DNA of 44,496 bases from an uncultured Methanosarcinales archaeon (GTDB lineage Archaea > Halobacteriota > Methanosarcinia > Methanosarcinales > Methanogasteraceae): positions 1 through 44,496 of the forward strand of contig CBDUQO010000001.1 of assembly GCA_965369365.1 (NCBI GenBank), read 5' to 3'. Below the pieces are notes generated by a model. It searched no databases. It saw nothing but the letters and a program-made list of their open reading frames with translations, and was not told where the DNA came from. Position numbers and translations under genes: made by a program. Every line of letters starts with the position of its first letter. Position 1 is the first letter of the stretch. Below are positions 5,738 through 44,496 of the stretch, piece by piece.

Positions 5738-6249
5738 CAGACGGAATCAAAACAATGATCGCACTCACCGACCATTTCGAGGTCGAGTGCCATGACAAAT
5801 ATGGGACGCTCAAGTGGAGGGATACCATCGATAATCTTGTAGTGAACGTAGGACTTGACGACGTACTCGACAAGTATCTGCGGGCAAGCATGCACACTTC
5901 AGAGCATTACGTCGGACTCACAGACGGAACGCCGACGCCAGCCGCCGGAGATACAATGACATCCCACGCAGGATGGGTGGAGGTTGTCGCATACGCAGAA
6001 GCCGCCAGGCAGCTCGCGCAGTGGGGGGCAGTATCGGGGCAGAGCGCCAATAACAGCGCCAATAAAGCAGTGTTCACGATCAATGCAGACGCCACGACAC
6101 TCGGCGGGTGTTTTCTGTGCACAAACAGCGCAAAAAGCGGGACGGCGGGAACCCTCTACGGCGTGGGAGCCTTCAACGCAGGAGACAAGACCCTCGATGC
6201 GTCCGACCTGCTGAACGTAACGGTTACGGCGAACGCCTCTGCAACCTAG
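5734..6249 (+). CDS. Hypothetical virion-module protein (171 aa)
   Basis: Long ORF translationally coupled to its neighbours; no motif I can name. Confidence 0.5.
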   Translation: MTDGIKTMIALTDHFEVECHDKYGTLKWRDTIDNLVVNVGLDDVLDKYLRASMHTSEHYVGLTDGTPTPAAGDTMTSHAGWVEVVAYAEAARQLAQWGAVSGQSANNSANKAVFTINADATTLGGCFLCTNSAKSGTAGTLYGVGAFNAGDKTLDASDLLNVTVTANASAT

Positions 6250-6253
6250 AGCC

Positions 6254-6526
6254 ATGGAACGATCTTTCGTGAAAGACCCGGCGGCAATCCTGGATTATGC
6301 GTTCGACTGGACCGCATGGCTTCAGTTGGGGGAGGCGATCATCAGCCACGTGGTCACGGCGGCTACGGGGATTACGAAAGACGGTGATAGCGAAAACGCT
6401 GGGGTGGTGACTGTGTGGCTGTCCGGAGGTCTTCCGGATCACCGCCATATCGTTACATGCCAGATCACCACAAACCTCGACCGAACCGAGGAACGCAGCA
6501 TGAGAATAATGTGTATGGAGCGATGA
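6254..6526 (+). CDS. Hypothetical protein (90 aa)
   Basis: ORF with KDPAAILDYAFDWTAWL N-terminus; coupled to the connector gene through an ATGATG overlap. Confidence 0.5.
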   Translation: MERSFVKDPAAILDYAFDWTAWLQLGEAIISHVVTAATGITKDGDSENAGVVTVWLSGGLPDHRHIVTCQITTNLDRTEERSMRIMCMER

Positions 6527-6897
6527 TGTACTGCGCTGTCGAAGAACTTATTCGCCTGACAAGCTCAGAACTGCCGCGCTTGACTCTTGAAGATATTATA
6601 GATCAAGCAGACCGGAGGATTGTAGGACGCCTGACAAAAATGGATGTGGGGGTGCCGACCTCCGATGACGTTCTAAAATCCGCATCACTTCAGCTATCGC
6701 AAGCAAGCGTGTTAGCTCATCCGGATAGTGCCCAGATCGCCTCAAGCGTGAAGCTTGGCGACATAACGATCCAGAAGGGGGATGTGGGTGGCACCATCGC
6801 CACGCTCGAAGCCCACGCATGGGCGCAGGTCGATAACTATGTCCTGCGGCATGGACGCGATGCGGCATCGCGGTTCTATTTCCGGAAGGTGAACTGA
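6523..6897 (+). CDS. Head-tail connector / DNA-packaging adaptor (gp6-like)
   Basis: MMYCAVEELIRLTSSELP..LEDIIDQADRRIVGRL N-terminus, typical of head-tail connector proteins. ATG at 6523 overlaps the upstream stop. Positioned before the head-closure gene. Confidence 0.6.
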   Translation: MMYCAVEELIRLTSSELPRLTLEDIIDQADRRIVGRLTKMDVGVPTSDDVLKSASLQLSQASVLAHPDSAQIASSVKLGDITIQKGDVGGTIATLEAHAWAQVDNYVLRHGRDAASRFYFRKVN

Positions 6898-7070
6898 TGA
6901 GCGATAACAAGACGGCGATTGTCACCATCCTGCTTATCACCACCGTATTAGCCACCACCTCGTACTTATCAGGCGTGGCATCCGAGACCCTGATAATGGG
7001 GCTTTCGAGCGCAGGGATAGCGGCAGTAGCTGGACTTTCCGGCTACGAGGTTGGGAAAAACTCATCATGA
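6897..7070 (+). CDS. Unlisted 57-aa two-TM mini-protein
   Basis: My own translation: MSDNKTAIVTILLITTVLATTSYLSGVASETLIMGLSSAGIAAVAGLSGYEVGKNSS. Start overlaps the previous stop (TGATG) and its stop overlaps the next ATG (ATGA), filling the gap exactly. Confidence 0.5.
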   Translation: MSDNKTAIVTILLITTVLATTSYLSGVASETLIMGLSSAGIAAVAGLSGYEVGKNSS

Positions 7071-7414
7071 CATTTAAACGACGCATCACGCAGTATGGGG
7101 AACCCGTGCAGATATGGGGTGCGTCCACCAACACAGACGAACTCGGAAACCCTATAAGCATCTGGGATATCGACAAAGATACTTTTATAGGCGTTGTTAT
7201 GCGCCCCACTGCCAGCGATGAGCGGTTTGGCGGTGGGCGGGTGGCGAAAGCAGACAAGAAACTGCTCGCCCCTCACGACGCCAATATTATTGCAGGGGAT
7301 CGGCTTGAGATCGACAGTATAATGTACGATCTCCTTGGTCTTCCGGCAGACTGGGAGATGAAGCTATCAGGGCGAGTGCAACACCTCCAAATATTCCTTA
7401 GGAGGGTTTTATGA
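7067..7414 (+). CDS. Head closure / head-tail joining protein
   Basis: 115 aa, positioned between the connector and the gp10-family gene; coupled overlaps. Confidence 0.55.
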   Translation: MTFKRRITQYGEPVQIWGASTNTDELGNPISIWDIDKDTFIGVVMRPTASDERFGGGRVAKADKKLLAPHDANIIAGDRLEIDSIMYDLLGLPADWEMKLSGRVQHLQIFLRRVL

Positions 7415-7758
7415 CCTCCGTATCAGTTACAGGGGCGGATAAGGTGGCTGCGAACCTTGCCAAAGCCGCCGTGGCGATAGAGGCGGCGGTAGGCGATGCG
7501 GTGACAGAAGCCGCCACGCTGGTTGAGCGAGAAGCAAAGATGATCGTACCGGTGGACACGGGTCGCCTCCGGAGCAGCATAACCGCGGATGAAAAGGAGC
7601 CGCTACACTACGAGGTCGGGACGAACGTAGAGTATGCTGGAAAGGTCGAGTTCGGTAGTGGGTGGCAGGGTGCACAACCCTACCTGGGTCCTGCGCTTGA
7701 GATAGCCAGGTCTCGGTATCCCGATATAGTTAGAGCTGGGGTGCGGAGCGAACTATGA
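7411..7758 (+). CDS. HK97 gp10-family tail-attachment protein
   Basis: IVPVDTGRLRSSIT and NVEYAGKVEFG motifs, characteristic of the HK97 gp10 family. Confidence 0.8.
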   Translation: MTSVSVTGADKVAANLAKAAVAIEAAVGDAVTEAATLVEREAKMIVPVDTGRLRSSITADEKEPLHYEVGTNVEYAGKVEFGSGWQGAQPYLGPALEIARSRYPDIVRAGVRSEL

Positions 7759-8159
7759 TCTCGATACTAAAAGCGTTCCGGGATGCACTGGCTGCAGAAC
7801 CCGCTGTTTCCGCTCTGGTTCCGGCTGATAATAGCTATGCAGGGCTACGAGATGAGAAAACGCGCCTTCCCGCCATCGATGTTTTTGGGGTGTCAGTGGT
7901 TATGGAAAACCTGGCAGGAGCGAGGGTAGGGGGGATATTTGAATCGTCTGAGGTGATTCAGGTCTCGATCTACAGCCGAGCGGCAGATGCGTCACAACTG
8001 ATATCCGACGTGGTGATCAACACGTATCTCGGAGATAATGCGGCCCTTAATGCGGCGGGCATAAAACTTATTACGCTCATCAACAAAGTAGAGATGAGGG
8101 AGAAAAACATTAGCCATATCGCTTTGCGGTTCAGATATGGCTATCACATGACAATATAA
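7755..8159 (+). CDS. Tail completion / terminator-like protein
   Basis: 134 aa directly upstream of the major tail gene; the assignment rests mainly on synteny. Confidence 0.5.
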   Translation: MISILKAFRDALAAEPAVSALVPADNSYAGLRDEKTRLPAIDVFGVSVVMENLAGARVGGIFESSEVIQVSIYSRAADASQLISDVVINTYLGDNAALNAAGIKLITLINKVEMREKNISHIALRFRYGYHMTI

Positions 8160-8175
8160 AAGGAGATGCATAAAC

Positions 8176-8895
8176 ATGGCAACAATAGTCGGATCGGATA
8201 TCCCGTCGGGAGAGCAGGTAAAATGGTGGATGGGCGGCGCAGAGGCGACGATGGTGCAGGAAACGCTCACCCCCTCCGCGCAGATAATTACCCTGTCGAA
8301 AAAAGCAGAGTATGGCAGCGTGATCACGGTAGACTTGAATGGGTTGCGCACCGATGAGATGCTCGAACTTGATACAACAGCACCCACCGACGCAACAGAA
8401 GCCACGGGAACGTCGTTTGTGGACATCGGCAGCACGACCGGAGATATTGTTGCATATTACATCGATATCGACACATCCGCCCTCGTACAAGTAATGGCGT
8501 GCAAAGATGTGTCGTCCGGGCTGAGCATGGACACAAAAGAGACCGAGGTGCATGGACAGACGCAGAAGCTTCAGAAGGTGGGGGCAGCCGTGCGGACCGC
8601 ATCACTCGAAGAACTCGACTACGACGATAATCTGGTTGGAGCGCTCTTCGGCGACAGTATCGCCGATTCACCGAGCGCGGGGATGCGGAAATGGACCGAT
8701 AACATATCTGCCGCTAAGAAAATCTCTGCACTCGTTGGGAAACAGTATAAGGACGGCGTCCTCATCAAGAAATGGTACCTTATGGGGTGCCAGGTCGCAA
8801 AGATCGATAGCACATTCCCGACTGCGGATTATTACTCGAAACAGATGGATCTGCTTGTTGACTACATGGTTACCGCCACGATGGTGCCGAACTGA
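8176..8895 (+). CDS. Major tail protein (candidate)
   Basis: 239 aa immediately before the G/T chaperone pair and the tape measure. Confidence 0.55.
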   Translation: MATIVGSDIPSGEQVKWWMGGAEATMVQETLTPSAQIITLSKKAEYGSVITVDLNGLRTDEMLELDTTAPTDATEATGTSFVDIGSTTGDIVAYYIDIDTSALVQVMACKDVSSGLSMDTKETEVHGQTQKLQKVGAAVRTASLEELDYDDNLVGALFGDSIADSPSAGMRKWTDNISAAKKISALVGKQYKDGVLIKKWYLMGCQVAKIDSTFPTADYYSKQMDLLVDYMVTATMVPN

Positions 8896-9472: not shown

Positions 9473-11173
9473 ATGGCTATCGGATCACTCGGAAAACTGT
9501 TTGTAGAGATCTCCGCCGACACTTCGGAACTTGATTCCGGACTGGACGGGGCTGAAAAACGCATATCAGGAATAGGGGCGAAGTTCCAGAAATCGGGGAA
9601 GGCGATCGGTGCGGGCATGGCGATAGCAGGAGTTGGGATGATGACGCTCACAAACTCCAGCATGAAAACAAACGCCATTCTTGGAACCACCGCACTACAG
9701 CTGGGGGTAACAAAAGAAGAGATGAGAGGGCTTGCGCTTGAGACTGCAAACGTGACGTTCCCCCTCTCAGAAGTTACGGCGTCTTTCGATCTCCTGACCC
9801 GAGCAGGGATGACTAATGCCGACCAAATAAGCGTAACCGCAACAGCGTTTGACACGCTGGGCGATGCAATCGGAATACCTGCTAGCGAGGTGACCCGCTC
9901 GCTTATCCCAGCGTTTAATGCGTTTGGAATGCCGCTCGAAGACGCTGCAGCCCACACGGACGCATTCACACACCTGATGCGAAACACCACCGTAGAACTA
10001 TCCGATTTTTCGAGTATGCTCAATTATCTTGCGTCCGATCTCGGGACTATGGATATTAGCATGGTGGAGAGCGTTGCAGTTATGGAAGCCCTCGCCGCCA
10101 GTGGGGTGCAAGGATCGGCAGCCACACGAGAATTTCGCACGGCAGTATCCGAAGCAGATGGTGATGTCGAAAAGTTTTACGAGGCACTTGGACTCACGGC
10201 GGAAGAGGTGGCGATCTACACCGGCAATATCGAAGCGGCAGACGGAATGACTCAGCAGTTTGCAGACGCGCAAAACGCGCAATTCACGACGCTTGATAAA
10301 ATCAAACACTCGTTGTCCGAAGCAACGCTGAGTTATGGATCTCTTCTTGAGCCTGTGGAGGCGTTGGGGCCGATCATGACTACGTTGGGGCCGATCATGA
10401 TATTGGCAAGTACTATGAACTATGCACATGCGGCGAGTGCATGGGCGGCAGTCAGCCCATATATAGCTATTGCGGCACCGATTATCGCGGTGGTTGCGGT
10501 GCTGTATATCCTCGAAAAGAAGTTTGGGCTTATCACAAAAGTAATTAATATAGTGACCGACGCGTTGGAGCCGTTGGTAGAATGGCTCGCAAGGGCGATA
10601 CCCAGTGCCATCAAAACCACGGTGGAGTTTGTCAGCGGGTTAGGGGATAAGCTATTATTTGTTCTCGGACCGATCGGGGCGATGGTGTACGCATTCAAGC
10701 ACTGGGACGAGATCGTAGCGATAATCAGCGATGTGTTTAAGAGGGTTTTTTCTTTCCTGATGAACCTTGACAGGGAGTTTAAGAGGGCTGGGTGGAATCT
10801 TATGGTTGCGTTTGCGAACGGCATCATAAAAGGTATATCGAAAGCCGTGGACGCCGTTAAGAGCGCTGTCGGAAAAGTGCGGGATTACCTGCCAGGGTCT
10901 GATGCGAAGATTGGACCTCTTTCAGATCTCACCGCATCCGGAGCCGCCCTGATCACGACTTTCGAGAAAGGCATCGCTTCAAGCAGCGGAGATCCCGGGG
11001 CGGCGTTCGCAGCCGCTGCGCCACAGGTACCGGGGGCTGCCAGCGATAACCGGAATTACCAGAGCAGCGTAAGTATGGGTGATATTAGCTTATCATCCAA
11101 TTATAATTTCGAGTCGCTTATGGCCGATATAAACCGGTATCAGGCGACACAGCGAACACAGCGAGGTGTGTAA
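9473..11173 (+). CDS. Tail tape measure protein
   Basis: 566 aa, Ala/Gly-rich helical N-half, central hydrophobic segments, position after the G/T pair. Confidence 0.8.
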   Translation: MAIGSLGKLFVEISADTSELDSGLDGAEKRISGIGAKFQKSGKAIGAGMAIAGVGMMTLTNSSMKTNAILGTTALQLGVTKEEMRGLALETANVTFPLSEVTASFDLLTRAGMTNADQISVTATAFDTLGDAIGIPASEVTRSLIPAFNAFGMPLEDAAAHTDAFTHLMRNTTVELSDFSSMLNYLASDLGTMDISMVESVAVMEALAASGVQGSAATREFRTAVSEADGDVEKFYEALGLTAEEVAIYTGNIEAADGMTQQFADAQNAQFTTLDKIKHSLSEATLSYGSLLEPVEALGPIMTTLGPIMILASTMNYAHAASAWAAVSPYIAIAAPIIAVVAVLYILEKKFGLITKVINIVTDALEPLVEWLARAIPSAIKTTVEFVSGLGDKLLFVLGPIGAMVYAFKHWDEIVAIISDVFKRVFSFLMNLDREFKRAGWNLMVAFANGIIKGISKAVDAVKSAVGKVRDYLPGSDAKIGPLSDLTASGAALITTFEKGIASSSGDPGAAFAAAAPQVPGAASDNRNYQSSVSMGDISLSSNYNFESLMADINRYQATQRTQRGV

Positions 11174-11174
11174 A

Positions 11175-11528
11175 ATGGAGCCTATCACAATCGAAGAAAT
11201 GATGATCTTGCCACGGCGCCACTTTGTAGGGCGCATGGGGGCATGGATAAAGATGTTTAATGGCGGGAATCTCTTAGAACTTGATAGCCCGCTCCACTGC
11301 CCCCTGCACCGGTGGGTTGTGCACAACGATAAAAAATGCAACAAAGAACTCGTTGCAAACACTGCCACGTGTCCCCTATGTGGCAATCCGTGCTGTCCGG
11401 ATTGCCAGAACCACAAAGTCGAAACCATCTCACGCGTTACCGGCTATCTAAGCGTGGTTTCGGGGTGGAACGAGGCGAAGAAACAGGAATATAGGGATCG
11501 GGATCACTATGAGCTGGAGGGGCGCTAA
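11175..11528 (+). CDS. Stand-alone NrdD C-terminal-like domain (Cys cluster plus glycyl-radical loop)
   Basis: TCPLCGNPCCPDC..ETISRVTGYLSVVSGWNEAKKQEY resembles the Zn-ribbon and RVxGY glycyl-radical loop plus the following N-x-G-K-x-x-E segment at the C-terminus of class III ribonucleotide reductase. ATG at 11175 follows the tape-measure stop. Confidence 0.6.
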   Translation: MEPITIEEMMILPRRHFVGRMGAWIKMFNGGNLLELDSPLHCPLHRWVVHNDKKCNKELVANTATCPLCGNPCCPDCQNHKVETISRVTGYLSVVSGWNEAKKQEYRDRDHYELEGR

Positions 11529-11971
11529 TGGGTGCGGGAACGTCCCCGGCCATATTCTCAGGCGACGCCACCAACCACGACGCTCTTGTATTCGGGAACG
11601 GGGGGGCGCAGACGGGTTTCTTTTTCATTGCACTAGAAACAGGAATCTATTTCGATGGCATCCGGCTTGAGAACCCCACCCCATTCTGGGAAGACCGATC
11701 GCCAATAATAAAAGCGACTGAACTGCTCAGCGGGGGGGTATCGGTACAGAGCTCGCCCGAAGGACATGTAAGGCCTCTGCGGGTGTCGTTTGTGTGTCAA
11801 ACATCGACACATGGCAACATCTCGGCATTGTTGGCTAAGATTGGTGGAAAATATCGGCTACAGATAGATGAATTTGGGTACAGCGGCTGTTATATCAGTT
11901 CTTTCCGAGAAAATGAATGGTACCCCGGCGAATTCGAGTATATTATCTCGTTCATACAGGACACAACATGA
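11528..11971 (+). CDS. Distal tail protein (candidate)
   Basis: 147 aa between the tape measure / NrdD-like gene and the large tail-tip protein; TAATG and ATGA overlaps. Confidence 0.45.
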   Translation: MGAGTSPAIFSGDATNHDALVFGNGGAQTGFFFIALETGIYFDGIRLENPTPFWEDRSPIIKATELLSGGVSVQSSPEGHVRPLRVSFVCQTSTHGNISALLAKIGGKYRLQIDEFGYSGCYISSFRENEWYPGEFEYIISFIQDTT

Positions 11972-19005: not shown

Positions 19006-21156
19006 ATGAGCTCCTCTTCTATCACAGACGAAATGACTGATCACTACGAGCGTTATAAGGGATATTTTGAAAACAATGAACCTGTATATCTTTCCATCGT
19101 AAATGACATCCTGTCGGACAAAGGAGAGCATCGCAGAAAATTTAAAAAAATATTTAGCTTAGCACGGCTCGAATTTCTGAACACCACCACGACCCCGGAT
19201 TATTTGGGTCTGTTTAATGGCGCCTCCGGATACGTCGACGATTCGATCAAAGCCCAACAATCCCGGCTCAAGCGGTTGGGAGTACTGGATGCCCAAGGGC
19301 TTTTCAAAGAGTCTTTTTTTCAGGAGTATCTCAAGAGGTATGACGATATTCAATCGAAAAAGAAAATTTTGAAGGCAGTGAAGGGGGACAGCACGTTTTT
19401 CGAGGATCAGACCGTCGCCGCTGAGTACGATTACCTGAATACCATGGACGTTATTCGAAAAACCCCCACCACGATCTACCATCTTCCGAATCTTCCAGTA
19501 ACCACTCTTAATTATTTCGACACCAAAAAGATCCAGATAATCAAGATGAATCATGTTGGCGGCAACCCGGTCGTTCAGTTGCCGCTGTCGTACCATTATC
19601 GCTGCAACAAGTGCAAAGACGAGGTGGATATGTCGTTCGATGTAAAAAACGTTCCCTGTGTGGACATGGATTGTGGGGGGGCGATGGTGCGCGTGAAAGA
19701 TAAGGACATCGTGCGCCCTGTATACGCCTCCCGGGTAGTTACCGATGACGCGAATTCTATCTCAATTATCTCGCTTACCGAGATCCCGCAGGGGGAGTTT
19801 ATCGGGGCGGCGTTTCTATGCAAAAACAAAACTGATTATTATCTTTTCATGATTGCTACTGAGGATATTGAGCCGACCAGCAGCACAATCACAATCACCC
19901 CAGATCGGCACGCTATATGGCAGATCATTGAGCAGATCGATCTGCTACACGACACACTAATCCATACACACATCGATGGCATGGATTGGTACAAAGCCGC
20001 CATCCTGCTCGCATACCTGGCGAATCGGAAGGGCAGGGTGAGCACAAACGTGCTCATTGTTGGAGGCCCCGGGGTGGGAAAAACATCGACGCCACGGCTC
20101 TACGCGGCAACTCTGACGCCGCAGCAGAAAGTGGTCGACTCGATGCAGCTCACCGGACCCGGACTGCATGGGTCAATGACTCAGATAAAAATTGGCGATA
20201 GCACTGTCATGGTTCCCGAAGTGGGCTTTCTTGCGCGGTATCAGCTCGTGGTAATCGATGAGCTTCTTGAGAATCGCAATAGCTTGATGCCACAACTGAA
20301 ATCCGCCCTCCTATCATCTACGATCAGCAGAGAGGTTGCGGGGAATCGGACGCAGACCCCAAAGTATGCAACCGCCATCGCAACATCGAATCCAATCCCC
20401 TCCGTACTCGTGGAGCAGCTTAGGTGGATGAATAAGTGGCTTGAGGCCGGCGACGGCACTTGGGACTATTCCGATGATCCGGCGAAGGATGCTATGATCG
20501 CCGAGTGGACGCTTCGGGGGCTTGAGTGGCGTACCGGGCAGACTCTTGCAGACATGGATCGCTACCCGCTTCTGTTTTTCGTGACTGACTCGACCGAGGA
20601 TGTGTCGGCGCACGAGTTAGGCGGAAGGGATAATGAGATCGACGACATGCGACTATCCAAACTGCTATATAATGCGGACATAAACGAGTATTTTAGTTTT
20701 TGTGGCAGGATACACGTGGATTGGACCCCCCATACTGGCAGGGTCATAGATCTTGTGCGCGAATTGATGGCGCATGATAAGATCCATTCGAAAAAACGCC
20801 TCGCGCAAAATATAACGCTGATGCTGCAACTATCAGCACAGATAAACGGCAGGGCGAACCTAACCGATGACGATTTCGCTTTTGTGCGCGAGCTCTGGTC
20901 TAAGACCTGTGAATGGCTTGACGTCGAGGAACTGCGTCACACCGAGGGCGGATATCTGACCCGATCGGGCGATTGGACTATTGAGCGCATCAAGAATGAG
21001 ATCCACACGTACATGCGACAGTGCGAGGGCGTGTCACGGTATCACCTGACGCCGACCGGATTCGCTATGATCGCTGCAAAGTTGGAGGATGCGGGTGCAC
21101 CGGCGGATTTGATTGCCGACACGATAGAGCATTACCGGGCGAACCCAAATCAATGA
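19006..21156 (+). CDS. MCM-like AAA+/P-loop replicative helicase candidate
   Basis: N-terminal C4 zinc ribbon (CNKC..CVDMDC) followed by an OB-like segment. Walker A GGPGVGKTS, Walker B LVVIDELLE. Adjacent to the origin. Canonical MCM motifs are divergent. Confidence 0.55.
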   Translation: MSSSSITDEMTDHYERYKGYFENNEPVYLSIVNDILSDKGEHRRKFKKIFSLARLEFLNTTTTPDYLGLFNGASGYVDDSIKAQQSRLKRLGVLDAQGLFKESFFQEYLKRYDDIQSKKKILKAVKGDSTFFEDQTVAAEYDYLNTMDVIRKTPTTIYHLPNLPVTTLNYFDTKKIQIIKMNHVGGNPVVQLPLSYHYRCNKCKDEVDMSFDVKNVPCVDMDCGGAMVRVKDKDIVRPVYASRVVTDDANSISIISLTEIPQGEFIGAAFLCKNKTDYYLFMIATEDIEPTSSTITITPDRHAIWQIIEQIDLLHDTLIHTHIDGMDWYKAAILLAYLANRKGRVSTNVLIVGGPGVGKTSTPRLYAATLTPQQKVVDSMQLTGPGLHGSMTQIKIGDSTVMVPEVGFLARYQLVVIDELLENRNSLMPQLKSALLSSTISREVAGNRTQTPKYATAIATSNPIPSVLVEQLRWMNKWLEAGDGTWDYSDDPAKDAMIAEWTLRGLEWRTGQTLADMDRYPLLFFVTDSTEDVSAHELGGRDNEIDDMRLSKLLYNADINEYFSFCGRIHVDWTPHTGRVIDLVRELMAHDKIHSKKRLAQNITLMLQLSAQINGRANLTDDDFAFVRELWSKTCEWLDVEELRHTEGGYLTRSGDWTIERIKNEIHTYMRQCEGVSRYHLTPTGFAMIAAKLEDAGAPADLIADTIEHYRANPNQ

Positions 21157-24767: not shown

Positions 24768-25331
24768 ATGCAAGAACAACCGCGCCACGCCGCCGCCTAC
24801 ACGTTTTATAGGGATATGCCGAAACGAAGTTACCGGGTGGTGGCCCAAAAGTGCGCTGTTTCGGAAACGTCCGTGAAAAAGTGGGCGAAGGCGTTTAAGT
24901 GGCAGGATCGTATTGTTTTGTGGGATCGAGCAATACACGAAGGCATACAAGACGCCTCGATAGCGGCGGTGGTGGAAACCCGAATAAAAGAGATAGAACA
25001 GCTTGATCATACATATCGAGAGATCGAAGATCTCAAGCCACTTATTTTTTCGGCGCTTGATACATGCTCATCAAAAGACCCCAAGACGGGGGGGCGCAGG
25101 ATAGAGGTAATCCCCCAAAACACACAAGACATGACCGCCCTCTATAATGCATTATCTCGCCTCAACACCACTCAGATCAAGATTATCGAGGTTGAACGCA
25201 AGATCCGAGGCGAGCCGGACGAGGTTGCGGTGACCGGCACCGTGCACGTTTCGTTAAGCGAAACACTCAAAGAATATGAAAACATCATTACAAGAATCTC
25301 TGAAGGCGATCCGGCTAAAAACGATTGTTGA
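24768..25331 (+). CDS. terS: Terminase small subunit (candidate)
   Basis: N-terminal HTH (SYRVVAQKCAVSETSVKKWAKAF), coiled C-half, directly upstream of and overlapping terL. Confidence 0.6.
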   Translation: MQEQPRHAAAYTFYRDMPKRSYRVVAQKCAVSETSVKKWAKAFKWQDRIVLWDRAIHEGIQDASIAAVVETRIKEIEQLDHTYREIEDLKPLIFSALDTCSSKDPKTGGRRIEVIPQNTQDMTALYNALSRLNTTQIKIIEVERKIRGEPDEVAVTGTVHVSLSETLKEYENIITRISEGDPAKNDC

Positions 25332-26601
25332 CACCATCCTGAACAACCCCTATATCCCACACAAACCCACAGATAAACAGTTCGAGTTTTTATTTTATTC
25401 GGATGTGCTCGAGGGGTTCTACGGTGGTGCTGCCGGCGGCGGGAAGTCGGACGCTCTTCTGGCGGCGGCTCTTCAGTTCGTACAACTACCCCGGTACTCT
25501 GCAATGTTGTTGCGGCGGACTTATGCGGATCTATCTTTGCCGGGGGCTCTGATGGATCGAGCGCAGGACTGGCTAGCCCCCACTGATGCAAAATGGCATG
25601 CTGATACGAAAACATGGGCGTTCCCATCCGGGGCGACAATCACGTTCGGCTATCTGGATCATGAGCGCAGCAAATACCGATATCAGGGGTCTGCGTTCCA
25701 GATGATCGGTTTCGATGAGGTAACTCAGTTCACCGAGCCCATGTATCAATATCTGTTTTCTCGGCTTCGCAGGCTTGAAGATTCTCATATACCGTTGCGG
25801 ATGCGGGCGGCGTCAAATCCGGGTGATGTTGGCCACGATTGGGTTAAGCGCCGGTGGATATTGCCTACATCAACCGAACTTGCGGCTCATAACCGTTTTT
25901 TCGTTCCTGCGTTCCTTGAAGATAACACATATCTTGATAAGGGGTCTTATGCTGCTGCGCTTGACCTGTTAGATCCCATCACGCGGGAGCAGTTGCGGCA
26001 CGGCGATTGGGATATAAGCGTCAGCGGCGGCATGTTCGAGCGCACATGGTTTAATATCGTTGAGCAGGCGCCGAGGGGTGGTGCGGCGGCGCGGTTTTGG
26101 GATCTTGCAGCGACCGAGGCGAAAGCGGGCAGCGACCCGGATTGGACGGTTGGGGTGTTGATGGTGCATCATGGCGATTATTATTATGTGCGGGATGTGG
26201 TGCGGGTCCGAAAAACTCCGGGGGATGTGGAGGCGATCATCATGCATACCGCACAGGTGGATGGGCTCGTAACAAAAATCTATATGGAGCAGGAGCCCGG
26301 ATCATCTGGCAAGGGCATGATACATACATATTCGAAACTTCTTGCAGGATATGCGTTCTATGGAATCCCTAGTAGCGGCTCTAAGTCGGTTCGTGCACAG
26401 CCCCTTAGTGCCGCATCATCCAGGGGGGCTGTGCGGGTCATGGCGAGCGGATGGACGAACGATTTTCTGTCTGAGCTTGAGCGATTCCCAAACGGCGATC
26501 ATGATGATCAGGTCGATGCTGCCGCCGGCTGTTATAATATGTTGACGGCAGGAGCCGATCCATCAAGATTCCGGATGGCCGGCGCAGAACGCCGATGGTA
26601 A
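25276..26601 (+). CDS. terL: Terminase large subunit
   Basis: Walker A GGAAGGGKSDA, Walker B-like MIGFDEVTQF, ASNPGDVGHDWV, C-terminal nuclease DHDDQVDAAAGCY. Confidence 0.9.
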   Translation: MKTSLQESLKAIRLKTIVDTILNNPYIPHKPTDKQFEFLFYSDVLEGFYGGAAGGGKSDALLAAALQFVQLPRYSAMLLRRTYADLSLPGALMDRAQDWLAPTDAKWHADTKTWAFPSGATITFGYLDHERSKYRYQGSAFQMIGFDEVTQFTEPMYQYLFSRLRRLEDSHIPLRMRAASNPGDVGHDWVKRRWILPTSTELAAHNRFFVPAFLEDNTYLDKGSYAAALDLLDPITREQLRHGDWDISVSGGMFERTWFNIVEQAPRGGAAARFWDLAATEAKAGSDPDWTVGVLMVHHGDYYYVRDVVRVRKTPGDVEAIIMHTAQVDGLVTKIYMEQEPGSSGKGMIHTYSKLLAGYAFYGIPSSGSKSVRAQPLSAASSRGAVRVMASGWTNDFLSELERFPNGDHDDQVDAAAGCYNMLTAGADPSRFRMAGAERRW

Positions 26602-38880: not shown

Positions 38881-40086
38881 ATGTTTGACAGATTCAAGTT
38901 TCGGCTTCTTGATGCGCTCGGCGGAAAGCCGAAGACCCGAGTAAGCGTCGGGGGGTCTGACAAAGACTTGTTTGGCGTGAACCGCGGGCGTAACCCTGCA
39001 CAGCTCAAAAAACTACGAACAATCTATGAGCAGGGCGGCATTGTGGCGGAGGCGCTTGATTGCTACCCCATATTTGCGTTGCGAAGCGGCTGGCGGCTGG
39101 AGGGGGAAGATCAGAACCTGAAAGATGCTGTATATGATTTCCTCGTGTCGCCGAGTATCGATATCGATGCTGCGATGAAACAACTCGAGACCGATGCGGT
39201 CGTGTTTGGCGATGGGTTCGCAGAGACTGTGTATGGGCGAGGTGGGGATATTGTAGGGTTGTTACCTCGTGCATCAGATACGTTCTCGGTACTTCATGAT
39301 GCGGCGGGGGACGTGATCGGATATGAGCAGCGGATATCAGATCATGTCACCGATTATACGACAACCCTAAATCCCGAACAGATAACGCGACATACCCTGC
39401 TGGGTCTCGGCGGAAGTGTGTACGGGGTTAGCCTGGTCCAGCGGGCTTATGATGATATTATACGAGACGCCATCACGACAGAAGGGATCGCGACGGGAAT
39501 CAAGCGCCACGGCACGCCGAAGTTTCATGTACGGGTTGGGCAACCCGGGGAGCTGATACCACAGGATGTGATCGATGACATCAAAAAAGAGTTTCAGAAA
39601 CTCGAAGCCAAAAACGATTTCGTCACTAACTACGACGTCGCCGTAGACGGGCTTGATGCCGGCGGTGTGCAGAACGTGAAAGAGTATGCCGACGTTTCCG
39701 GCGTCCGGGTGCTCGGTGCGCTGGGAGTCCCCTCGGAGCTGGTCGGCATCCGGCAAGGCACTACCGACAACACGGCAGTGAGCCGCATCGACACGTTCAT
39801 GGCAAAAATCGGATGGCACCAGCGACGGCTCGAGAGGTGTATCAAAATAAATGTGATCGACCGATTCACCAACGACCCCGGATCGGTGGTCATGGTATTG
39901 AATGATGCCAGCCCCAAAGACGAGGCGGCAAAGGCAGCATGGATCTCGGACATACTGAAAGCAACGTCGATTGATCCGTTCGCAATCCTGCCGCGGGATT
40001 GGGTGCAAGAACAGTTCGGCATCAATCCGGATGCTTATGATGCTGACGAAGAGAATCTGCCACCAGTCATCGATGAAGATCTATGA
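38881..40086 (+). CDS. Portal protein
   Basis: 401 aa, first gene of the late operon, immediately followed by a MuF-type gene; acidic C-terminus. Confidence 0.75.
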   Translation: MFDRFKFRLLDALGGKPKTRVSVGGSDKDLFGVNRGRNPAQLKKLRTIYEQGGIVAEALDCYPIFALRSGWRLEGEDQNLKDAVYDFLVSPSIDIDAAMKQLETDAVVFGDGFAETVYGRGGDIVGLLPRASDTFSVLHDAAGDVIGYEQRISDHVTDYTTTLNPEQITRHTLLGLGGSVYGVSLVQRAYDDIIRDAITTEGIATGIKRHGTPKFHVRVGQPGELIPQDVIDDIKKEFQKLEAKNDFVTNYDVAVDGLDAGGVQNVKEYADVSGVRVLGALGVPSELVGIRQGTTDNTAVSRIDTFMAKIGWHQRRLERCIKINVIDRFTNDPGSVVMVLNDASPKDEAAKAAWISDILKATSIDPFAILPRDWVQEQFGINPDAYDADEENLPPVIDEDL

Positions 40087-43804: not shown

Positions 43805-44496
43805 ATGAAGGAAATAACGGTAGACCCGATGAGTCATCGACCGGTTGACTCCAGACATGAGCCGCACGCAAGGCTTCTTTCGAGCATTCTTGAGATTGCA
43901 CGCATCGATCACAGCGGGGAACGTCTCGGAAGCCGGCAGAGGCGCGCACTCCTAAGCCGCATACCTGCGGAGATGGGTTCCAGCAAGATCGATGATTTCA
44001 TGAGCAGCGACCCAACCGCAGATAGGTACCAAGCAAGACAGCTCTTGCTCACCGAGGCAATCGAATCAACCAGCATCGTTCAGGAACAAGTACTCCGGAC
44101 GGTTATTGCTGGCGCTGAGAAGTTCCAGATAATTAGGGACGCAGGGGTTGCATGGTACGCTACAAAATCAAACGCTCTCCGGGTACCGCTTGGGGAGGCA
44201 AGGCGGAACGCCGACATAATCGCCGAGGCCGCGGAGATCAAGGGCAGAACCCAGGATTATGAGCCACGAGACTTCTCGATCGTGAAATACGGGTCTCGCC
44301 CGGATATCAGTTTCGAGATGATCGAGGATGGTATGGTCGATGTGGTTGCAGAAGAGGTCTTCTATGCCGGTGCGGCTGTTGAGAACAGACTGAATTACGA
44401 GGCGTTCACCGCTCTGGCAACGAATGCGGGCAAGTCCACGACCACAACCGGATGCGGAACTGACGGCACGGCCCTTTCAGTACTCAGGGAGGCAAA
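43805..44496 (+). CDS. Major capsid protein, N-terminal part (runs off the window and continues at 56-479)
   Basis: ATG at 43805, 2 nt after the previous stop; open to the window end; frame continuity checked across the 55-bp overlap. Confidence 0.8.
   Translation, partial: MKEITVDPMSHRPVDSRHEPHARLLSSILEIARIDHSGERLGSRQRRALLSRIPAEMGSSKIDDFMSSDPTADRYQARQLLLTEAIESTSIVQEQVLRTVIAGAEKFQIIRDAGVAWYATKSNALRVPLGEARRNADIIAEAAEIKGRTQDYEPRDFSIVKYGSRPDISFEMIEDGMVDVVAEEVFYAGAAVENRLNYEAFTALATNAGKSTTTTGCGTDGTALSVLREA
44442..44496. repeat. Second copy of the 55-bp terminal overlap
   Basis: Identical to bases 1-55. Confidence 0.95.

Follow-up and report, generated by a model that had tools for sequence, protein, structure and literature searches.

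The 44,496-nucleotide contig CBDUQO010000001.1 (GenBank assembly GCA_965369365.1), from an uncultured Methanosarcinales archaeon and analyzed here over its whole length (the window), carries a gene for a 117-residue protein that resembles only the last part of the anaerobic (class III) ribonucleotide reductase (RNR) NrdD, its glycyl-radical domain (GRD). We call this gene and its product mini-NrdD. The gene directly follows that of a tape measure protein (TMP): a single nucleotide separates the TMP stop codon from the mini-NrdD ATG, and a TAATG overlap joins the mini-NrdD stop codon to the ATG of the next gene. The translated open reading frame (ORF) contains the cysteine cluster C66-P-L-C69-G-N-P-C-C74-P-D-C77 followed by H80, and downstream of it E-T-I-S86-R-V-T-G90-Y91 and then LSVVSGWNEAKKQEYRDR; the tail of the protein is GWNEAKKQEYRDR. 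The codon of Gly90 occupies positions 11442-11444. Translation likely starts at ATG 11175 and not at GTG 11166, because homologues start with MEPIT and a GAGGTG motif precedes this ATG. A purine-rich GGNG motif upstream of the gene is kept in five related loci.

Profile comparisons confirm that the C-terminal part of mini-NrdD is a homologue of the NrdD GRD, with matches far beyond chance. Pfam family PF13597 matches residues 64 to 112 (E=6e-12; 45.4 bits against a gathering cutoff of 26.2) at profile positions 509-562 of 562. TIGR02487 aligns at its C-terminal end only (E=3.8e-11; 42 bits versus a cutoff of 326), and six further NrdD equivalog models likewise align only through their last ~40 positions, far under their whole-protein cutoffs. 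PHROG NrdD families 487 and 4218 also match the protein, and its best sequence match in the PDB is the NrdD chain 8p23_A (E=0.005). When compared by hhalign with an alignment of ten full-length archaeal NrdD C termini, residues 72 to 115 correspond to the last 44 residues of NrdD (probability 99.8%, E=1.8e-29). The GRD is 64% identical to that of NrdD from Methanothrix and from the anaerobic methanotrophic archaea ANME-2. PF01228, the Gly_radical family of pyruvate formate-lyase (PFL), gives no match at E<=10, and no tail protein family is found among the Pfam or PHROG matches. An earlier reading of the locus from its letters alone (the sequence-only reading) had proposed an NrdD-like radical domain at the C terminus, and the significant PF13597 and hhalign matches bear this out.

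By these comparisons mini-NrdD is a GRD-only homologue and not an NrdD enzyme. With the C-terminal GRD of NrdD (structures from T4, T. maritima, and P. copri; the Methanosarcina NrdD3 type) it shares the second zinc knuckle, the RVxGY loop, and the C-terminal helix, but it lacks the barrel, the ATP-cone, and the finger loop. The second knuckle, C74-P-D-C77 (11394-11405), aligns with NrdD, and the loop S86-R-V-T-G90-Y91 is followed by the C-terminal helix WNEAKKQEYRDR. The first knuckle is not homologous; in its place stand C66xxC69, only 4 residues away, together with H80 (11412-11414), which is specific to the family, and C42 and C55, all putative metal ligands. A tight CxxC-x4-CxxC-x2-H arrangement plus C42/C55 thus replaces the first zinc knuckle of NrdD, and the alignment behind the parallel to the NrdD zinc site drawn in the sequence-only reading covers the second knuckle. 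The conserved ligands C42 (11298-11300), C55 (11337-11339), C66 (11370-11372), and C69 (11379-11381) all lie in a 71-residue N-terminal module that NrdD does not have. A 108-residue tblastn alignment would have made this module homologous to the end of the NrdD barrel, but neither blastp nor hhalign supports it and it was rejected. The AlphaFold2 (AF2) model has an overall predicted local distance difference test score (pLDDT) of 83, reaching 87-93 over residues 1 to 50, and places helices in the N-terminal module at residues 6-11, 14-28, and 43-51.

Mini-NrdD belongs to a large group of similarly short proteins. Among 5.8 billion proteins searched, 135 homologous clusters (90% identity) were retrieved; of the 120 clusters listed, all carry PF13597 and almost all are short (79-165 residues). 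An exhaustive hidden Markov model (HMM) search against 1.84 billion representatives of 50%-identity clusters gave 1271 matches at E<=0.001, the first 83 of which are all <=208 residues long; 115 of the top 150 are <=200 residues. In an alignment of 47 homologues with a mean column identity of 36%, the residues C42, C66, C69, C74, P75, C77, H80, S86-R-V-T-G90-Y91, K102, Q104, E105, D108, and R109 are invariant, so that the glycine of the RVTGY loop, whose variation would have spoken against a radical role, is conserved throughout. A histidine 10 residues before the glycine is found in 149 of 157 short proteins and in 0 of 24 full-length NrdDs, and the CxxC-x4-CxxC spacing occurs in 146 of the 157. 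In a neighbor-joining tree of the 50-residue core, the full-length GRDs form a clade without any short protein.

On this sequence evidence, the short proteins are one family with its own metal-site architecture and not assorted truncated NrdDs. We define the mini-NrdD family as proteins of 90-160 residues with CxxC-x4-CxxC-x2-His, [ST]R[VI]TGY 16 residues after the last CxxC, and a K-[KQ]-Q-E-x-x-D-R tail. All of these features are present in the window protein; they occur in 146-149 of 157 short proteins and in none of the 24 full-length NrdDs. Relative to its closest homologue (L126; 87% nucleotide identity), the gene as a whole has a ratio of nonsynonymous to synonymous substitution (dN/dS) of 0.23; the N-terminal module taken alone gives 0.28 and the GRD 0.16. 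The mini-NrdD gene is under purifying selection.

The survey of other genomes that the sequence-only reading had called for finds the gene in related viruses in the same place, and in other viral and cellular contexts as well. The order TMP, mini-NrdD, 147-codon gene is kept in L003, L004, L005, L009/L091, and L126, where the flanking proteins are only 40-77% identical. In L006, a related virus (SNF2 proteins 62% identical), the mini-NrdD gene immediately precedes the portal gene, which again places it in the structural module. Diverged relatives have thus kept the gene, and its genomic position differs among them. In IMG/VR, about 28 contigs carry stand-alone mini-NrdDs of 47-150 residues in varied contexts. 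Among cultured phages, tblastn finds only the C termini of full-length NrdDs, for example in Methanobacterium virus PhiF1, and no mini-NrdD gene.

Two large viral contigs place the gene next to a GRD-less barrel. An operon on the 127-kb contig L103 encodes a mini-NrdD (134 residues, 5782-6186), a glutaredoxin/NrdH-like protein (80 residues, 6214-6456), and an NrdD of 690 residues (6459-8531). This NrdD ends in ...GYFAFTRDITISKNEYRWRRS, exactly where the zinc ribbon and glycine loop of a normal NrdD would start. On the 136-kb contig L105 (5911-9892), a 95-residue mini-NrdD is followed by an NrdH-like gene and an intein-containing barrel ending in ...GYFAFTKDFTICNNGYRYYD; 3' of this barrel lies a candidate ferredoxin:disulfide reductase ORF, judged by eye. 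The NrdH-like genes of these split operons, together with the reductase-like ORF (in L105 only, by eye), presumably match the redox system of methanogen NrdD3. Apparent inteins also lengthen the viral barrels of L105, L115, L116, and L118, and full-length archaeal nrdD ORFs of 1150-1860 residues in L047, L068, L070, L071, L079, L085, and L087 appear to be lengthened in the same manner.

Another group of loci (L119-L125) carries ultra-short ORFs of 47-87 residues that consist of the glycine loop and tail only, PCEVYSR[IV]VGYLRPVxxWNxAKQQEFxDRKTF. Examples are L124 1708-1851, L125 5971-6123, and L122 5392-6105. They lack a zinc ribbon, no NrdD barrel lies within 6 kb of them, and the GC content of their contigs ranges from 35 to 62%. 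In L122 the glycine-loop segment terminates a 237-residue ORF with a homing-endonuclease-like N terminus. The ultra-short ORFs may represent a second, independent class of stand-alone radical peptides; alternatively, they may be exon fragments that mobile endonucleases carry along.

The barrel of L103 has counterparts in cellular genomes. None of its best 120 database matches (P0121-P0240), all NrdDs of the Methanomicrobiales type, shows R[VI]xGY or CxxC within the last 90 residues, and all 120 stop 37-45 residues past GYFAFT with a nonconserved tail. Isolates among them include Methanoregula boonei 6A8, Methanolacinia petrolearia DSM 11571, Methanoculleus sediminis, Methanocalculus chunghsingensis, and Methanogenium. 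The M. boonei nrdD (L127 6001-8190, CP000780.1) comes after an NrdH-like gene, and no GRD is encoded within 6 kb of it in any frame. A mini-NrdD gene of ~120 codons is found elsewhere in the same lineages (Methanoregula, Methanocalculus, Methanoculleaceae, and Methanocorpusculaceae; L014-L029), in the conserved gene order deoxyhypusine synthase, pyrF, mini-NrdD, (PAS), CbiZ. Methanocalculus chunghsingensis has both halves, a GRD-less NrdD (P0183) and a mini-NrdD (L019). Class III RNR thus appears, from gene content, to be split across the order Methanomicrobiales.

Because GRD-less barrels adjoin mini-NrdDs in L103 and L105 and the NrdDs of Methanomicrobiales lack a GRD, gene content makes it most likely that the mini-NrdD family supplies the glycyl radical in trans to a GRD-less NrdD barrel. 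The sequence-only reading had imagined a domain acting in trans on NrdD. The GRD-less barrels of the two viral contigs and of Methanomicrobiales support the trans action, but the clearest role seen there is that of an obligate separate subunit and not of a spare. The open-access literature searched yielded no account of a stand-alone NrdD radical domain or a split methanogen NrdD. Databases name both halves "anaerobic ribonucleoside-triphosphate reductase," an annotation problem that hides the split.

The complete window genome, in contrast to L103, L105, and Methanomicrobiales, contains no NrdD barrel that could be the partner. A tblastn search of it with four full-length NrdDs matches only 11391-11522, in agreement with the sequence-only reading that the catalytic barrel is absent. 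A scan of all frames for the CxxxCxxC motif of the radical S-adenosylmethionine (SAM) activase NrdG gave no credible ORF, and among 50 window ORFs scanned with Pfam none matched NrdG, NrdH, or an integrase. Bases 1-55 recur exactly at 44442-44496, and the window is therefore a complete viral genome of ~44.4 kb, circular or terminally redundant. Since the genome is complete, the absence of NrdD barrel, NrdG, and NrdH is real.

Features of the window, with positions counted from its first base
Feature	Position	Strand	Basis or remark
Stand-alone NrdD glycyl-radical-domain protein (mini-NrdD) gene	11175-11528	+	117 codons plus TAA stop (11526-11528)
N-terminal family-specific module, residues 1-71	11175-11387	+	three predicted helices; NrdD homology by hhalign begins only at residue 72
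Glycyl-radical domain proper, residues 72-115	11388-11519	+	profile and hhalign matches, conserved columns
Shine-Dalgarno-like GAGGTG	11163-11168	+	6 nt 5' of the ATG, within the final TMP codons; read from the sequence
Tape measure protein gene	9473-11173	+	PF10145 (E=1.5e-15) and several TMP PHROGs; stop codon 11171-11173
Conserved 147-codon gene, presumed tail protein	11528-11971	+	no Pfam or PHROG match
MCM-like helicase	19006-21156		
Large terminase	25276-26601		
Portal	38881-40086		
Direct terminal repeat	1-55 and 44442-44496	.	exact sequence identity

As read from its genes, the window is a tailed archaeal-type virus, which also encodes an SNF2 helicase and a MuF-like protein. The 147-residue product of the gene following mini-NrdD is 70-77% identical to proteins at the same position in L003-L005 and L009. 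Genes 3' of mini-NrdD have no family assignment save weak tail-fiber and depolymerase matches in a 470-residue protein; of the placement "between tape measure and tail-tip genes" in the sequence-only reading, the upstream TMP is supported by its PF10145 and PHROG matches, and "tail-tip" remains positional with weak matches. Scans with bacterial consensus sequences for an internal "moron" promoter of mini-NrdD stayed at chance level, and the TATA-like ATTATAAT ~70 nt upstream was rejected as a promoter, as it lies inside a conserved TMP coding stretch and is not specifically conserved. PADLOC defense models have no match in the window. Elsewhere in the genome (29061-33690), a 431-residue protein with a weak TrbL/VirB6-like match is followed by a 273-residue ORF and an 838-residue P-loop ATPase with weak FtsK/STAND matches, a membrane/ATPase block that is unusual for a tailed-virus genome. 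The 30 smaller ORFs of the window include one match to DUF2227, an uncharacterized metal-binding family (E=2.5e-18), and one to the podophage fiber-tail adaptor Gp77 (E=3e-23).

The known proteins that come nearest to mini-NrdD in function are GrcA/YfiD of E. coli and Y06I of phage T4. Both are autonomous glycyl-radical cofactors that restore PFL after its cleavage by oxygen, and Y06I is a phage-encoded precedent (PMC13450708). Mini-NrdD of the window is a member of neither. Like them, it is a small stand-alone GRD with a short N-terminal extension and without a barrel and, by analogy, would be activated by the activase of the parent enzyme. Unlike GrcA/YfiD, it derives from NrdD and not from PFL (hence the missing PF01228 match), and it carries a putative Cys/His metal site. 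A further difference is that GrcA is accessory to an enzyme with its own GRD, whereas relatives of mini-NrdD are, by gene content, the only GRD available to GRD-less barrels and thus presumably obligate subunits.

Phages also harbor RNR genes in pieces, such as nrdA of Aeromonas phage Aeh1, split by a homing endonuclease, and T4 nrdD with its intron. Mini-NrdD resembles these in that the catalytic RNR polypeptide comes in separately encoded parts that need reassembly. It differs in that no adjacent inserted mobile element causes the NrdD split, that the NrdD parts are unlinked in Methanomicrobiales chromosomes, and that the window virus keeps only the small part.

A lone gene for a viral-type mini-NrdD is also present in cellular genomes, namely those of Methanococcoides, with the isolate M. 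seepicolus LLY (WP_250869233.1) among them, and metagenome-assembled genomes (MAGs) of Methanosarcinales and ANME-2. Because the closest cellular carriers of the viral-type protein lie there, the host group is likely Methanosarcinales/ANME-2. The anaerobic host supposed in the sequence-only reading is consistent with these relatives in methanogen and ANME genomes; exceptions are four MAGs labeled bacterial, in our view mis-binned contigs. For Methanosarcinales, ANME-2, Methanothrix, and Methanocellales, the recovered NrdDs are full-length enzymes that include a GRD, and Methanococcoides too has a full-length NrdD (L082). In the viral clade, the glycine tip and tail are 72-73% identical to full-length Methanosarcinales-type NrdDs versus 67% to the Methanomicrobiales mini-NrdDs, and the zinc part groups with the mini-NrdDs (59% versus 25% to the full-length enzymes). 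In a Methanococcoides sp. (L007 8791-10381) the viral-type gene adjoins a divergent peroxiredoxin, a flavodoxin, and MarR, and in a Methanosarcinales MAG (L013 600-3622) it adjoins an F420-dependent sulfite reductase (Fsr) and an AsnC regulator. The oxidant-defense neighbors of these lone cellular genes give a weak hint of a spare-part role.

On the sequence evidence, we consider it reasonably probable that mini-NrdD of the window is a trans-acting radical subunit used on the host NrdD. The small protein would fold around its own zinc site or sites, and the host activase NrdG, a radical-SAM enzyme, would abstract a hydrogen from Gly90. The glycine loop would then dock into an NrdD barrel without a working radical domain and generate the catalytic thiyl radical in trans. 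Because the virus encodes no barrel, activase, or reductant, the partner barrel must be that of the host, and barrel, NrdG, and reductant would all be host supplied. The NrdD of the likely host carries its own radical domain, so the viral protein would be a spare or extra one; it would re-arm NrdD whose own domain is oxygen-cleaved, unactivated, or displaced, and thereby keep the deoxynucleoside triphosphate (dNTP) supply going for viral DNA synthesis. NrdG activation, docking into host NrdD, and an advantage for the virus are inferred, and a GrcA-like repair of host NrdD damaged by oxygen is suggested by analogy. Mini-NrdD may be coexpressed with the tail, or even delivered with it.

Several points weigh against this use of mini-NrdD on host NrdD. 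A full-length host NrdD would make the access of an exogenous GRD hard to explain, and the gene sits inside a late morphogenesis operon, an unexpected place for a gene of nucleotide metabolism. Because the genome has no integrase, expression of the gene as a "moron" in a lysogen is unlikely. The MCM-like helicase gives no host signal, as all 36 of its relatives are metagenomic and the sole named one comes from a MAG labeled Thermodesulfobacteriota. AF2 confidence drops to a pLDDT of about 75-77 in the GRD, below that of the N-terminal module. Further, Foldseek searches of the AF2 model against the PDB and BFVD gave no match at E<=0.001 and so no independent structural confirmation of the GRD fold, probably because a 45-residue GRD is too small beside NrdD chains of >=600 residues.

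If the host NrdD were itself split, the viral gene would be an ordinary auxiliary metabolic gene supplying further copies of an essential small subunit, possibly a limiting or consumable one. Split systems are the only context where the partner of the family is evident, and the 50-residue core is closer to the Methanomicrobiales mini-NrdDs (distance 0.35) than to any full-length GRD (0.54). We nevertheless regard this extra-subunit role as unlikely, if the most serious of the alternatives: the N-terminal module of the window clade is helical, whereas the Methanomicrobiales proteins have extra CxxC ribbons; the closest cellular carriers (Methanococcoides, ANME-2, and Methanosarcinales) have full-length NrdDs (L063, L076, L082); and the glycine tip and tail are slightly closer to the full-length enzymes (72-73%) than to the Methanomicrobiales proteins (67%). 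Within a trans-acting role, the spare-part mode is favored over an extra dose of a split-enzyme subunit. A mimic that titrates NrdG or blocks the barrel, stopping host dNTP synthesis for host takeover or superinfection exclusion, would equally need a conserved glycine loop and tail recognized by NrdG and barrel, and late expression suits a function unlinked to genome replication. Such a decoy seems improbable for a virus that replicates its DNA (MCM-like and SNF2 helicases) without its own RNR, to which blocking the sole dNTP source would be harmful; homologues with the same invariant residues are moreover the sole GRD available to GRD-less barrels, pointing to a productive role.

The position right after TMP, with spacing like that of translational coupling and kept in six related genomes, and the place of the L006 gene directly upstream of portal would suit a zinc-ribbon protein of the virion or of tail assembly. 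Such a protein would work with TMP as an assembly factor or be ejected, its NrdD-like segment co-opted outside RNR or delivered with the DNA. The family, however, is also found in nonstructural viral contexts (L089, L090, L103, L105) and in cellular chromosomes, the protein matches no tail family in Pfam or PHROG, and a purely structural role would hardly account for the strictly invariant radical glycine and flanking residues; we hold this role to be somewhat less probable still than that of a decoy. Full-length NrdD genes do occur in methanogen viruses (PhiF1; L113, L115-L118), from which a decaying remnant could arise. A remnant of this kind, or a chance ORF, is very improbable and effectively refuted by the breadth of the family (135 clusters at 90% identity, almost all short among the 120 listed, with a family-specific N-terminal module), the dN/dS of 0.23, and the lack of barrel fragments anywhere in the complete genome.

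Taken more broadly, we give even chances to a two-component class III RNR that is obligate in Methanomicrobiales and some large archaeal viruses, with viruses like that of the window plugging a lone radical subunit, a zinc protein of ~120 residues, into a host barrel. If true, this would be the first case of a spare-part, or portable, radical domain that serves a glycyl-radical enzyme (GRE) other than PFL. According to a June 2026 review of GREs, spare-part proteins are known for formate lyases only, and whether other GREs have them is an open question (PMC13450708). The mini-NrdD family makes this question directly testable for anaerobic RNR, and mini-NrdD is probably the first radical protein of the spare-part type for an enzyme other than PFL. 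The split NrdD of a methanogen order offers a ready system for studying how a GRD docks into, and leaves, its barrel, with cultured strains that carry a GRD-less nrdD (M. boonei, Methanolacinia petrolearia), both halves (M. chunghsingensis), or a lone mini-NrdD (M. seepicolus). For archaeal viruses, mini-NrdD would be a portable small auxiliary gene by which they may sustain dNTP synthesis in oxygen-sensitive hosts.

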